A program made the position numbers and the translations under genes. The notes below the pieces were generated by a model that saw only the letters and a program-made list of their open reading frames with translations, was not told where the DNA came from and searched no databases. This document shows, in pieces, positions 37,527 to 41,743 of a DNA stretch of 43,002 nucleotides (position 1 is the first letter of the stretch; every line of letters begins with the position of its first letter). The stretch lies in IMG/VR virus record IMGVR_UViG_2740892012_000013, positions 1 through 43,002 of that record. One strand, written 5' to 3'. The DNA comes from a virus. Lineage: Duplodnaviria > Heunggongvirae > Uroviricota > Caudoviricetes.

Positions 37527-37679
37527 ATGCAGTGGAAAATCATCAACGGTTGGTACTGCGTTACTGCATGCGGATTCATGAGCTGGAAGTTCCGCACCTT
37601 ACAGGAAGGCATTAAGTGGGCTTTCGTCAGCAAAGAAGCTCGCGATGTGGCCAACGATAACGAGATATGGGAGGGCTGA
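37527..37679 (+). CDS. Small hypothetical protein (50 aa)
   Basis: SD GAGG 9 nt upstream; first ORF after the promoter; not in the ORF track (under 60 aa). Confidence 0.4.
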   Translation: MQWKIINGWYCVTACGFMSWKFRTLQEGIKWAFVSKEARDVANDNEIWEG

Positions 37680-37681
37680 TA

Positions 37682-37981
37682 ATGAACGTTAATCAGCAGA
37701 AAAATCTTCAAAAAATCATGCTGGCATTCGACAAGGACTACCGTCTGTCAGAACAGCTATATGACCGACAAGTTGAACTGATTGAGAGTATCCGGCTTCA
37801 TCAACTGGCATCAACTTTCGACGTTGTAACAGTTAAAGGCGTTCGCCAGGAAGTACTGGAGGCCGCTAAAGACAGCCCTGAGTTCGAAGAACTAATGGAT
37901 GCCTACCGGCGCGAGGCAATGGCAATTATCGCCCGCTGGGATCTGGCTGATCAGCTTGATGGGCAGAGGGACGCGGCATGA
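37682..37981 (+). CDS. Hypothetical early protein
   Basis: ATG at 37682 with SD GGGAGGG 6 nt upstream; stop overlaps next start (ATGA). Confidence 0.5.
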   Translation: MNVNQQKNLQKIMLAFDKDYRLSEQLYDRQVELIESIRLHQLASTFDVVTVKGVRQEVLEAAKDSPEFEELMDAYRREAMAIIARWDLADQLDGQRDAA

Positions 37982-38799
37982 AACCGGGAATTTATTTCGA
38001 CATCAGCAACGAAGACTACCACGCCGGTGACGGCGTGAGTAAGTCGCAACTGGACATGGTTGCCAAGAATCCGGCGCTTCTTAAATGGGTTCAGGCAGCA
38101 CCAGAAGACGAAGAGAAAAAGTCTGCACTGGATATGGGAACCGCATTGCACTGTCTGCTTCTGGAGCCTGGAGAGTTCGACAAACGCTTCATTGTTTCAC
38201 CGAAATTCGATCGTCGGACGAAACAAGGTAAAGCTGACGAAGAGGAATTTCTTCGTGATGTGGCGGATATGGGGATTACGGTACTTGATGCCGAGCAGTG
38301 GCGGAAACTGGAGCTGATGCGTGATAGCGCAATGGCTCACCCGGCGGCACGCTGGATGCTGGAAGCACCTGGTTACTGCGAAGCATCAATGTACTGGAAC
38401 GATGAAGAGACGGGGGAGTTGTGCCGAATTCGTCCAGACAAATGGCTGAACGAGCACAACGTGATCGTCGACGTGAAAAAGGTTGCAGATATGGACCGTT
38501 TTGCACGCCACATCGAGGAATTCCGCTACCACGTGCAGGACGCAATGTACCGCGAAGGCGCAATGAGGGTTACTGGTCAGCCGCATGGTTTTTTCTTTCT
38601 TGCCGTGAGCGAAAGCATTGATTGTGGTCGGTATCCGGTACGCGTGTTCGAGCTGGATGCGCAGGATGTCGATGCCGGGCACGCTCTGTTCCGCCGGGAT
38701 CTGAATACCTATCACGAATGCCGCATCAATGATGAATGGGGCGGTGTGGAAATCATTAAACGCCCTGAGTGGGCACGCAAACAGGATATGTACATATGA
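37978..38799 (+). CDS. PD-(D/E)XK-type exonuclease (RecE / exonuclease VIII C-terminal-domain-like)
   Basis: 273 aa with nuclease-like motifs (...GTALHCLLLEPGEF..., ...VIVDVKKVADM..., ...YHVQDAMYREG...); translationally coupled to RecT-like gene. Confidence 0.65.
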   Translation: MKPGIYFDISNEDYHAGDGVSKSQLDMVAKNPALLKWVQAAPEDEEKKSALDMGTALHCLLLEPGEFDKRFIVSPKFDRRTKQGKADEEEFLRDVADMGITVLDAEQWRKLELMRDSAMAHPAARWMLEAPGYCEASMYWNDEETGELCRIRPDKWLNEHNVIVDVKKVADMDRFARHIEEFRYHVQDAMYREGAMRVTGQPHGFFFLAVSESIDCGRYPVRVFELDAQDVDAGHALFRRDLNTYHECRINDEWGGVEIIKRPEWARKQDMYI

Positions 38800-39737
38800 G
38801 CAACGACATCGCAAACATCAACGCACCAGTAGACACAGCAATCGCTGGAACTGCTGCAACTATTTTCAGCCCAGACGGCTTGAACCAACTGATGAAATTC
38901 GCCGAGGTAATGGCGCAAAGCCGCGTAACGGTACCGGCGCACCTCGCCGGGAAACCAGCTGATTGCATGGCCGTGGCAATGCAGGCTGCGCAGTGGGGAA
39001 TGAACCCGTTTGCCGTGGCTCAGAAAACCCATGTTGTGAACGGCACGCTAGGTTATGAAGCCCAATTAGTAAACGCAGTTATCTCAACGATGTCGCCAAC
39101 AAAAGATCGCATCAACTACGAGTGGTTCGGGCCGTGGGAACGCGTGATCGGTAAGTTTGTTGAGAAAACATCCAAAAACGGCAATCCATATATCGCACCA
39201 GGCTGGACTCTAAAAGACGAAGAAGGCTGCGGTGTTCGCGTATGGGCAACCATGAAGGGCGAGGATCAACCTCGAGTGCTTGAGTTAATGCTGTCTCAAG
39301 CACAGGTAAGAAACTCCACACTTTGGGCCAGTGATCCGAAACAACAACTCGCATACCTTGCGACAAAACGCTGGTCTCGCCTGCACTGTCCTGACGTAAT
39401 CATGGGCGTCTACACCCCAGACGAATTACAGGAAACGGCACCGCGCGTTGAGCGAGACATTACTCCGCAAACGACCACTGCTGCGGGAATGAACAGTCTG
39501 ATCAACGCTAAACCAGCGAAAAAGCCTGATGAGCAAACGCGTAAATCGGACAGCCGTGATCCAGAAGAAATGCTGATGGCCTTTACCAGCGCAGCGATGA
39601 ATTACAGCACTGTCTCCGAACTGGATAAGGCTTACAAATACATTGCACAAAAACTTTCAGATGATGACGAACTGCTGGCAAAAGCAACCGACGTTTACAG
39701 CGTTCGTCGGGAAGAATTAAACGAAACATCTATGTAA
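38796..39737 (+). CDS. RecT/Red-beta-family single-strand annealing protein
   Basis: ATG at 38796 (overlaps upstream stop); ...CMAVAMQAAQWGMNPFAVAQKTHVVNGTLGYEAQLVNAVI... typical annealase core; acidic C-terminus. Confidence 0.65.
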   Translation: MSNDIANINAPVDTAIAGTAATIFSPDGLNQLMKFAEVMAQSRVTVPAHLAGKPADCMAVAMQAAQWGMNPFAVAQKTHVVNGTLGYEAQLVNAVISTMSPTKDRINYEWFGPWERVIGKFVEKTSKNGNPYIAPGWTLKDEEGCGVRVWATMKGEDQPRVLELMLSQAQVRNSTLWASDPKQQLAYLATKRWSRLHCPDVIMGVYTPDELQETAPRVERDITPQTTTAAGMNSLINAKPAKKPDEQTRKSDSRDPEEMLMAFTSAAMNYSTVSELDKAYKYIAQKLSDDDELLAKATDVYSVRREELNETSM

Positions 39738-39786
39738 CCACCACCGCGGCGCCACGTGCGCCGCACTGCAACCAAGAGAGGTATTC

Positions 39787-40035
39787 ATGAAAGGTGCATT
39801 AGGTAAGAAAGAACTCCTGGCGGTGGTGCCACTGTCATGGAGCACTATCGACCGTATGGAGCGCGCAGGGGAATTTCCTAAACGCTGGTATATCACCGAT
39901 AAACGCTGCGCATGGAACCGTGATGAAGTTGAGCGTTGGCTTGATGAACGTCAGGCAGCAAGCCCGGCAGAGTTCCAGGGTAAAAAGCCTCCTGTTCAGC
40001 AACGTGTATATCGTCCCGTGAGCAACGCTGCATGA
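39787..40035 (+). CDS. AlpA-like HTH protein (excisionase/regulator-like)
   Basis: 82 aa, ...LLAVVPLSWSTIDRMERAGEFPKRWYITDKRCAWNRDEVERWL... matches AlpA/Xis-type HTH. Confidence 0.55.
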   Translation: MKGALGKKELLAVVPLSWSTIDRMERAGEFPKRWYITDKRCAWNRDEVERWLDERQAASPAEFQGKKPPVQQRVYRPVSNAA

Positions 40036-40192
40036 GTGCGCTGCTAAGGCACTGGAGCAAATGGTCAGGATGGTACTTATTCCTGGCCTCTGTTTCAGCA
40101 TGGCTTTATCTGCTGGCATTAATTTTCAGAGAGGGTTGGATTAAGTGAGAAAGTTAAGCCGACTTGAAAAATATCACATGAATAAGGTTTCA

Positions 40193-40444
40193 ATGCGCAG
40201 TCCGTCAAAGATTGTCGCCGTTACTCCTGCGGCGATAGAGATCGAAAAACGCGCGATTGAAAGAGAGAAAAAAGGGCAATTCCGCATTGCCGCTCACCTT
40301 TGGCTTCAGTGTATGGATGTTGCTTCTGGTGATGTTGAACGTGCAAGGATCGCGGTTCGCAGGGACCAATGTATCACAAAAGGTAACGGCCTTCGCCGTG
40401 GCGACTATAGCGGCATAGGATGTTGTGGGGTGGTTTATGACTAA
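40193..40444 (+). CDS. PerC/ANR-like small regulator (putative)
   Basis: Preferred ATG at 40193 (AAGG upstream); ...FRIAAHLWLQCMDVASGDVERARIAVRRDQC... resembles PerC-family prophage regulators from memory; start uncertain. Confidence 0.4.
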   Translation: MRSPSKIVAVTPAAIEIEKRAIEREKKGQFRIAAHLWLQCMDVASGDVERARIAVRRDQCITKGNGLRRGDYSGIGCCGVVYD

Positions 40445-41087
40445 GAAATACACACTAATCTATGCAGATCCACCCTGGGTATACCGGGACAAAGCCGCAG
40501 ATGGTAATCGCGGTGCCGGTTTTAAATATCCGGTTATGAGTGTGCTGGATATCTGCCGCCTTCCTGTGTGGGATTTGGCCGATGAAAACTGTCTGTTGGC
40601 CATGTGGTGGGTGCCAACACAACCACTCGAAGCACTAAAAGTTGTTGAAGCCTGGGGATTCCGTCTGATGACGATGAAGGGCTTCACGTGGATAAAATGT
40701 GGTAGTCGACAACCAGATAAACTGGTTATGGGTATGGGACACATGACTCGCGCCAATAGTGAAGATTGCCTGTTTGCGGTAAAGGGAAAACTACCTACGC
40801 GCATTAATGCAGGGATCGTTCAGTCATTTACCGCACCGCGGCTTGAGCATTCAAGAAAGCCAGATATCGTTCGTGAAAAACTTGTGCAATTATTAGGCGA
40901 TGTTTCTCGCATTGAACTGTTCGCCCGCCAGACGTCTCATGGCTTCGATGTTTGGGGTAATCAGTGCGAAGACCCGGCAGTGCAACTACACCCTGGATAC
41001 GCGTTGGATATCGGCGGATTAACAAATGCATTCAGCAATGCTCCGCTGTCACCAACAGACAACCAGGGGCGGGAGCGTGCAGCATGA
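40437..41087 (+). CDS. MT-A70-family DNA N6-adenine methyltransferase
   Basis: ATG at 40437 with SD GGGGTGG; catalytic DPPW motif ([10 protein letters not shown]) plus ...CLLAMWW... and ...GFRLMT... regions. Confidence 0.75.
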
Positions 41088-41743
41088 ACCTATATCAACG
41101 CATCAATGGCGCTGACTGGTGCAATATCTTCGTCGTCGGCGATCTGCATGGGTGCTACACGCTGCTGATGAACGAACTCGACAAAGTTTCATTCGACCCG
41201 GCGCGCGATTTGCTTATTTCCGTTGGTGACCTTGTTGACCGCGGCGCTGAAAACGTCGAATGCCTGGATTTGATTACTATGCCGTGGTTCCGAGCTGTTC
41301 GTGGCAACCATGAGCAGATGATGCTGGATGCACTGGTCAACGGCGGAAGTTTCGGACATTGGATGTCAAACGGCGGTGGATGGTGGCACCAACTTGATTC
41401 TGAGCAGGATGTGCAACTCAAATACCTTCTGCCAAAGGTTACCAACCTCCCGATGATTATCGAACTGGTTACCGGCAATAAGAAGGTCGTCATCTGCCAC
41501 GCAGACTACCCGCACAACGAATACGCATTCGATAAGCCAGTACCGGAAGAAATGGTGATATGGAATCGTGAGCGGGTTAGCGACGCGCAGGACGGTATTG
41601 TCTCGGAGATAACCGGTGCCGATTTGTTCATCTTCGGTCATACGCCAGCACATCACCCACTGGTGTATGCAAACCAAATGTACATCGACACCGGCGCAGT
41701 GTTCTGCGGAAATCTGACGCTTACCAAAGTCCAGGAAGGATAG
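41084..41743 (+). CDS. Ser/Thr protein phosphatase, lambda-phosphatase-like (calcineurin-like metallophosphoesterase)
   Basis: ATG at 41084 overlapping upstream stop; motifs GDLHG, GDLVDRG, GNHE; about 219 aa. Longer ORF-track start at 40964 rejected. Confidence 0.8.

Follow-up and report, generated by a model that had tools for sequence, protein, structure and literature searches.

The locus considered here raises the question of whether a run of small, tightly packed genes ending against an integrase gene can be read as the early-left operon of a temperate phage, how such an operon would be switched, and what its last genes would do. It occupies positions 37527-41743 of a 43,002-nucleotide (nt) stretch of viral DNA (IMG/VR record IMGVR_UViG_2740892012_000013, Caudoviricetes; hereafter the window). 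A preliminary description, made from the letters alone, had proposed that an operator-flanked promoter drives RecE/RecT-like recombination genes together with an MT-A70 methyltransferase and a lambda-type phosphatase toward a convergent integrase gene (int). Our analysis indicates that the region very probably belongs to a temperate podovirus of the genus Uetakevirus (phiV10/epsilon15-like), inserted into the E. coli chromosome at the guaA 3′ end, and serves as its early-left (PL-type) operon under repressor control.

Nine + strand open reading frames (ORFs) were recovered between 37527 and 41743 (Table 1). They are tightly packed and mostly overlapping: seven of the eight junctions are either 2-nt gaps or overlaps of 4-8 nt, and the remaining one is a gap of 49 nt. 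From 37413 to 42768, a terminator scan of the + strand gave nothing terminator-like, and a promoter scan of 36300-43002 found no further promoter-like site inside the operon. Because the genes overlap and neither kind of internal signal was found, we infer that the genes of 37527-41743 are carried on one polycistronic early-left transcript. Every Pfam domain assignment in the operon passed its gathering threshold, and domain or structure-sequence searches bore out each component that had been named, i.e., the nuclease, the annealase, the AlpA-like and PerC-like proteins, the methyltransferase, and the phosphatase. The earlier proposal had been staked on the methyltransferase and phosphatase folds in particular, and domain searches confirmed both. 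No Rfam family was matched within 37527-41743, and the sole matches in a PADLOC check of the operon for defence systems were to generic type II methyltransferase profiles.

Table 1 Features of the early-left region and its surroundings (positions in the window; ".", no strand assigned).
Feature	Position	Strand	Basis or remarks
Immunity repressor gene, 194 residues, double helix-turn-helix (HTH)	36789-37373	+	phrog_8 and other repressor families
Intrinsic-terminator-like hairpin, end of the repressor transcript	37394-37413	+	8-bp stem with 6 GC pairs, T-rich tail
Operator palindrome TTACCTAACGGGTAA	37431-37445	.	Perfect TTACC-N5-GGTAA, upstream of the -35 hexamer
Early-left promoter, TTGACA-17-AATTAT	37465-37493	+	10/12 consensus positions
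Operator palindrome TTACCTCAACGGTAA	37493-37507	.	Perfect TTACC-N5-GGTAA, abutting the -10 hexamer and the likely transcription start
Conserved 50-residue ORF	37527-37679	+	phrog_898, E 1.9e-38; annotated in phiV10, PAS61, and RefSeq
Conserved 99-residue ORF	37682-37981	+	phrog_856, E 5e-55
RecE-type 5′-3′ exonuclease, nuclease domain only, 273 residues	37978-38799	+	Pfam DUF3799, E 9.5e-23; NCBIfam; PDB 3H4R
RecT single-strand annealing protein	38796-39737	+	Pfam RecT, E 2.2e-44; phrog_561
AlpA-family small winged-helix protein, 82 residues	39787-40035	+	Pfam Phage_AlpA, 24.2 bits (cutoff 21)
38-residue peptide, one hydrophobic helix	40032-40148	+	phrog_17484, E 2.6e-27
PerC-like protein	40145-40444	+	Pfam PerC, 30.1 bits (cutoff 22.6); phrog_868
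MT-A70 family N6-adenine methyltransferase	40437-41087	+	Pfam MT-A70, 79.9 bits (cutoff 23.9); DPPW at residues 11-14
Lambda-type (NinI/PrpA/PrpB-like) Ser/Thr/Tyr metallophosphatase	41084-41743	+	PDB 1G5B, E 6.7e-100; phrog_246, NinI-like
Cassette swapped relative to phiV10	41090-41762	.	673 bp (phosphatase gene and last int codons) in place of 203 bp with a DUF1382 gene
P4-type tyrosine integrase gene, 1257 nt	41746-43002	-	Pfam Arm-DNA-bind_3, Phage_int_M, and Phage_integrase

The control region lies between the repressor gene and the first ORF. The promoter that had been placed at about 37465 was found as the best of the three promoter-like sites in the 6.7-kb scan, and it is operator-flanked as had been claimed, by two perfect palindromes. 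The repressor of phiV10 (phiV10p40) is annotated with two HTH motifs, and the counterpart of the hairpin behind the repressor gene is annotated as a putative terminator in that phage. Overexpression of the orthologous repressor in phage ZX5 blocked lytic growth and abolished free phage and lytic transcripts, while overexpression of the antirepressor shifted the phage towards lysis (PMC9782041). With no more than one mismatch allowed, the window contains 14 copies of the operator motif where 0.73 would be expected, and none of 100 shuffled sequences reached this number. The sites start at 5932, 7340, 7465, 8511, 26827, 30008, 30026, 34326, 34388, 36334, 36671, 36719, 37431, and 37493, and are chiefly intergenic or in promoter regions. 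The genome of phiV10 also carries the motif 14 times (0.71 expected), with part of the sites at corresponding positions. This pattern suggests a dispersed, P1-like repressor regulon, and hints that phages of the Uetakevirus type use scattered repressor-controlled promoters, possibly including that of int, in place of lambda-style antitermination.

A twin of the early-left promoter module was observed on the minus strand at 34326-34402. It has the same layout, with two operators 62 nt apart around a ATCTATTGA -35 region, and is directed at the genes beyond the terminator of the replication gene P. In addition, a short motif, TCATATCTATT, stands beside operators at 36350-36360, 37456-37466, and approximately 5922-5932.

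At its other end, the operon meets int tail to tail. Exactly 2 nt separate the end of the phosphatase stop codon (41743) from the int stop codon (41746-41748), which agrees with the spacing given in the preliminary description. Because int is on the opposite strand, it cannot belong to the early-left transcript; it therefore has its own promoter, which is expected between int and the att core. The place where the phosphatase gene and int meet was searched for a bidirectional terminator or other structure, and none was found: the fold z score was -1.1 on both strands and no terminator-like site was present.

The lambda PL operon runs from N through gam-bet-exo to xis-int and is subject to sib retroregulation. 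The operon described here resembles it in having a repressor gene and a terminator upstream on the same strand, an operator-controlled promoter downstream of the repressor gene, an exonuclease/annealase pair, a small excision-related protein, and a direction towards the att/int end of the genome. It differs in that the recombination pair is of the RecE/RecT type instead of Exo/Bet, and no N-like antiterminator or gam was recognised in the operon. The lambda-style co-transcription of int and xis from PL is also not found, and since int is convergent and has its own promoter, it can be neither expressed by read-through from PL nor subject to control of the sib type. The Stx (Shiga toxin) phage Phi24B provides a precedent: its int has the opposite orientation to that of lambda and converges with the pL operon. 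There, int is expressed from its own promoter without dependence on CI, and xis remains part of the pL operon under repressor control (PMC3064807). The records of two other Stx phages, PA8 and F723, both have a convergent int. The integrase family and att site of Phi24B differ from those in the window, and whereas int of Phi24B is uncoupled from CI, repressor control is suggested, though not proved, in the present case by an operator-like palindrome that precedes int by 43 nt.

This palindrome, ATACC-N5-GGTAA (ATACCTTTAAGGTAA), lies just past the window end, between a weak -35-like GTGACG and a -10-like TATACT hexamer; in the source genome (L004 6109-6123) its distance to the int start is exactly 43 nt. 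It is also found at this distance in six phages, phiV10, PAS61, BP9, BUCT554, 65FD, and Tyrion, the latter three being divergent. The window ends exactly at the int start codon, and attL and the int promoter are outside it. In the source genome, which is 100% identical over the tested junction, int is 192 bp from guaA. The att core, ATTGAGTGGGAATGATT, is present at 1162-1178 of the window and again in the source genome, where it adjoins guaA about 190 bp past int, and it matches the published attP/attB of ZX5. Since the core occurs at both places and guaA follows int, the window is a prophage integrated at the guaA 3′ end with a P4-type int beside the att core, and the left end of the window comprises about 1.1 kb of host DNA. 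This host part (the first ~1.16 kb of 1-1178, with the attR core at 1162-1178) contains a glycine-zipper lipoprotein-like gene and a DUF5384 gene.

From these features we propose the following scheme. In a lysogen, the double-HTH repressor would bind the two operators around the 37465 promoter and keep the operon off. Inactivation of the repressor, which in phiV10/epsilon15-type phages proceeds via antirepressors, would allow synthesis of a single transcript encoding the two small proteins, the RecE nuclease and RecT, the AlpA-family protein, the membrane peptide, the PerC-like protein, the MT-A70 enzyme, and the lambda-type phosphatase. CP4-57 AlpA and P4 Vis are precedents for a role as excision factor or int activator; because of this analogy and the PHROG assignment, the AlpA-family protein would be the best candidate for an excisionase, an activator of int, or both. 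The last position of the operon, beside int, would serve as an exchangeable cargo slot, as its variability among relatives indicates. The convergent int would be transcribed from its own promoter within the 190 bp between int and the att core, and the same repressor may control it through the palindrome 43 nt upstream. With moderate confidence, we thus regard int as co-regulated with the operon and not co-transcribed.

Several points weigh against this scheme. Both the single transcription unit and the 3′ end of its transcript are deduced from sequence features, and early-left transcripts may read antisense into int because the junction has neither a terminator nor a significant fold. As to the int promoter, a scan of the source genome upstream of int found no sigma-70-like consensus promoter. 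The entire int-upstream region is 92% conserved across the genus, so that conservation of the palindrome is not specific, and the palindrome could instead be part of an attP arm.

The relatives place the operon firmly within a known type. From 36300 to 41089, the window shares its gene order with phiV10 at 98.4% identity, and phages BP9, YDC107_2, EC.W1-9, and phiV10 show 98.1-99.3% identity over 85-100% of 37400-41800, while PAS61 is 96% identical to the region. These relatives are phiV10-like except for BP9, a record that is filed under Vequintavirus and carries the same module. Uetakevirus phages (phiV10, epsilon15, PAS61, ZX5, TL-2011b, Tyrion, and BUCT554) share the order of repressor gene, terminator, operator-flanked promoter, two small ORFs, RecE-like gene, recT, AlpA gene, membrane peptide gene, PerC gene, MT-A70 gene, last small gene, convergent P4-type int, and attP, together with integration at guaA. 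In Enterobacter and Salmonella members of the genus, DUF1317 or winged HTH (wHTH) genes are inserted between the PerC and methyltransferase genes. The chromosome of E. coli Ecol_AZ146 matches the segment comprising the methyltransferase, phosphatase, and int genes at 100% identity; PGAP gives the same products there, and guaA follows int. The junction with int is common, being present in 634 of 5426 complete E. coli genomes (~12%).

Accordingly, the gene content, gene order, and convergent int contain nothing new, as earlier descriptions of phages of the phiV10/epsilon15 type and the RefSeq annotations cover all of them; the phosphatase variant is likewise already in the databases, both in sequenced phages and in complete E. 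coli genomes. Nor is the arrangement unusual. It is common to the five other Uetakevirus phages examined, and among Stx phages it has a studied precedent in Phi24B and recurs in the two records examined, PA8 and F723. The discovery value is therefore small, and the remaining value lies in the biochemistry of the MT-A70 enzyme and the lambda-type phosphatase and in the dispersed operator set.

The first half of the operon is occupied by the small ORFs and the recombination genes. No Pfam or NCBIfam match was obtained for the 99-residue ORF at 37682-37981. The RecE-like protein, a PD-(D/E)XK nuclease of the DUF3799 family, matches the RecE nuclease domain structure (PDB 3H4R) with an E value of 9.4e-78. 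Against the NCBIfam model for exodeoxyribonuclease VIII, it covers positions 606-873 of 877 and scores 311.7 bits, below the equivalog cutoff of 1269. Full-length RecE of the Rac type (~866 residues) is therefore not present: the long N-terminal region is absent, and only the C-terminal nuclease domain remains. As in the Rac prophage, this domain is followed by a translationally coupled RecT, the recT ATG overlapping the recE stop codon (ATGA), and the pair forms a RecE/RecT module of nuclease domain and adjoining annealase. The annotated RecE-RecT "fusion" of phiV10 is due to one extra A in an A-run located 20 nt before the recE stop codon (window 38778; L001 3880 in phiV10). In the window and most relatives, recE and recT are separate and overlapping, and the extra A of phiV10 may be either a sequencing error or a real frameshift variant.

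The AlpA-like protein was assigned to phrog_66 ("excisionase and transcriptional regulator", E 2e-16) and matched an AlpA family protein of known structure (PDB 8C3T, E 1.8e-11). The 38-residue peptide that follows is annotated as a membrane protein in phiV10 and Tyrion and has no PGAP call. For the PerC-like protein, the Pfam match is limited to positions 5-50 of the 90-position profile, and a weak match to the ANR family falls below the cutoff. Its start is uncertain, the candidates being GTG at 40145, ATG at 40178 (phiV10 annotation), and ATG at 40193 (PGAP). For RecT and the PerC-like protein, no solved structure was detectable by sequence.

The methyltransferase covers the MT-A70 profile entirely (positions 1-172 of 172), with "YADPPW" at residues 9-14, and it matches MT-A70/METTL3 structures in the PDB. 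Its closest studied relative is M.EcoPA8orf6770P of Stx phage PA8, to which it is 83% identical over residues 1-187. It resembles this enzyme and M.EcoGV, both of Stx2a phages, in the DPPW motif and in its position near the int end of a leftward operon. In phiV10, moreover, the MT-A70 gene is followed by a DUF1382 gene, as in the Stx phages with an enzyme of the M.EcoPA8orf6770P type. There are two differences from PA8, namely that the overlapping upstream gene is PerC-like in the window and PNB-2 in PA8, and that the C-terminal ~29 residues are not alike. A close homologue of the Stx-phage MT-A70 enzyme, whose "rRNA" assignment is disputed, is thus present in the window within a prophage that is simpler and very common.

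The preliminary description had suggested that the MT-A70 enzyme is an early DNA N6-adenine methyltransferase that shields replicating phage DNA and progeny from host restriction. We consider this role plausible, though we hold it tentatively and as one option only. It is consistent with the annotation of this enzyme family in phage databases as DNA adenine methyltransferases, with the matches to the PADLOC type II methyltransferase (MTase_II) profiles (E 2.7e-77), and with the DPPW motif and the early-operon location. M.EcoGV, a close homologue, was also cited as methylating GATC in vivo when overproduced (PMC10810198). On the other hand, there is no cognate restriction enzyme nearby, and anti-restriction is just one option because the 83%-identical Stx-phage enzyme is reported to methylate 16S rRNA. 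M.EcoPA8orf6770P acted only weakly on DNA in vitro. It bound PNB-2, the product of the overlapping upstream gene, in a 1:1 ratio, and the resulting complex showed a more than 13-fold preference for 16S rRNA and 30S subunits; the complex also raised spontaneous induction (PMC10810198).

The PA8 results lead to another reading, in which the MT-A70 enzyme of the window acts mainly on host 16S rRNA and thereby modulates translation and prophage induction, perhaps with the PerC-like protein as a coupled specificity subunit replacing PNB-2. Besides the identity of the two enzymes, this reading draws on the gene context: the PA8 enzyme requires a small nucleic-acid-binding partner from an upstream overlapping gene, and in the window the PerC-like gene overlaps the methyltransferase start by 8 nt. 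The C-terminal ~29 residues of the PA8 enzyme, which its authors proposed as the partner contact (PMC10810198), are those that differ between the two lineages. Nevertheless, no PNB-2 gene lies directly upstream, as BLASTP gave no alignment between the PerC-like protein and PA8 PNB-2. BUCT554, Tyrion, and 65FD have other genes or a gap between the PerC and methyltransferase genes, and F723 combines a PA8-type methyltransferase tail with a different upstream gene, so that tail and neighbour do not strictly co-vary. In addition, the rRNA claim for PA8 rests on S-adenosylmethionine (SAM)-consumption assays in which the modified base was unmapped (PMC10810198). We therefore consider an rRNA-directed role unlikely and, because the PerC-like protein lacks similarity to PNB-2, its adjacency is inconstant, and the F723 tail and neighbour do not match those of PA8, a PerC-methyltransferase holoenzyme would be speculative. 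Homology of the PerC-like protein to PNB-2 itself has a low probability, given the missing BLASTP alignment and the fact that PerC is not always beside the methyltransferase in relatives.

Two observations were made on the Stx loci themselves. F723 and PA8 have identical MT-A70 genes, while the products of their upstream genes (L006 3774-4004 in F723 and L007 2851-3282 in PA8) share nothing but the last 10 residues, LYIDEFENAL. A mosaic junction is thereby located immediately before the methyltransferase start, which bears on the published claim that PNB-2 is the partner. The terminator sequence quoted in the PA8 paper had no match in the other Stx loci searched, the PA8 record being outside this search.

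The last gene of the operon encodes a phosphatase that appears from its sequence to be a member of the lambda-type PPP metallophosphatases. It aligns full-length with lambda phosphatase (PDB 1G5B), without gaps over 217 residues and at 67% identity, keeping all metal-binding and catalytic residues (D20, H22, D49, R53, N75, H76, H139, and H186), and the GDXHG, GDXXDRG, and GNHE motifs are conserved. The best NCBIfam matches are PrpA and PrpB, at 266 and 221 bits, both under their equivalog cutoffs. Identity to the nearest lambdoid ninI genes is only ~79% for the DNA; those genes are located in the nin region of the rightward operon, whereas the present gene closes the early-left operon in a podovirus.

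This gene is also where the operon departs from phiV10. Homology to phiV10 stops exactly after the methyltransferase stop codon and resumes within the last ~6 int codons, and between these points phiV10 carries a DUF1382 gene instead of the phosphatase gene, both with the same ATGA start overlap with the methyltransferase stop codon. The phosphatase version occurs in phages PAS61 and BP9 and in 143 of the junction-bearing complete E. coli genomes, most of the others having DUF1382 in the slot. Tyrion and 65FD have other small genes at this place, and BUCT554 has none. Since the phosphatase gene, DUF1382, other small genes, or nothing are found there among relatives, the int-proximal end of the operon is, on comparison of these sequences, evidently a cargo slot, and its phosphatase is the only variant feature of the operon relative to the phiV10 family. 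A lambda phosphatase can thus also be carried as cargo at the int-proximal end of the early operon of an unrelated phage.

The exchange of this slot among prophages that are otherwise 98% identical could also be taken to mean that the phosphatase, and possibly the methyltransferase, is a "moron" for lysogenic conversion, expressed in the lysogen by read-through or from a cryptic promoter and altering host signalling. The PA8 methyltransferase was reported to be transcribed in lysogens approaching stationary phase (PMC10810198), and the PrpA and PrpB proteins matched best by the phosphatase are those of E. coli itself. This is doubtful, however, as no promoter-like site was found within the operon, a good terminator separates the repressor transcript from it, and the overlap of the phosphatase start with the methyltransferase stop codon (ATGA) points to coupling to the upstream genes. 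A broader version, in which the 3′ half of the operon is a host-reprogramming module with the MT-A70 enzyme acting on 16S rRNA together with a non-homologous, coupled PerC-like subunit, the phosphatase acting on host proteins, and int placed on the same switch by its own repressor operator, is less probable still.

Elsewhere in the window, two antirepressor modules were observed. Rfam matches to isrK and C4 antisense RNA (P1/P7 immI-type) at 7516-7701 and 7749-8444 lie directly upstream of a Bro-N antirepressor gene, and the operator at 7465, near these matches, overlaps a likely promoter. The second module is of the P22 type (9710-11440): an Ant gene with a P22_AR_N domain on the minus strand (9710-10648) is accompanied by a match to sar antisense RNA (10650-10717) and an Arc-like gene (10979-11440). 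The GC content of the 11-12 kb stretch is just 33%. One tRNA has been reported for phage ZX5, and the window carries a phage-borne tRNA-Arg(tct) gene at 27164-27240.

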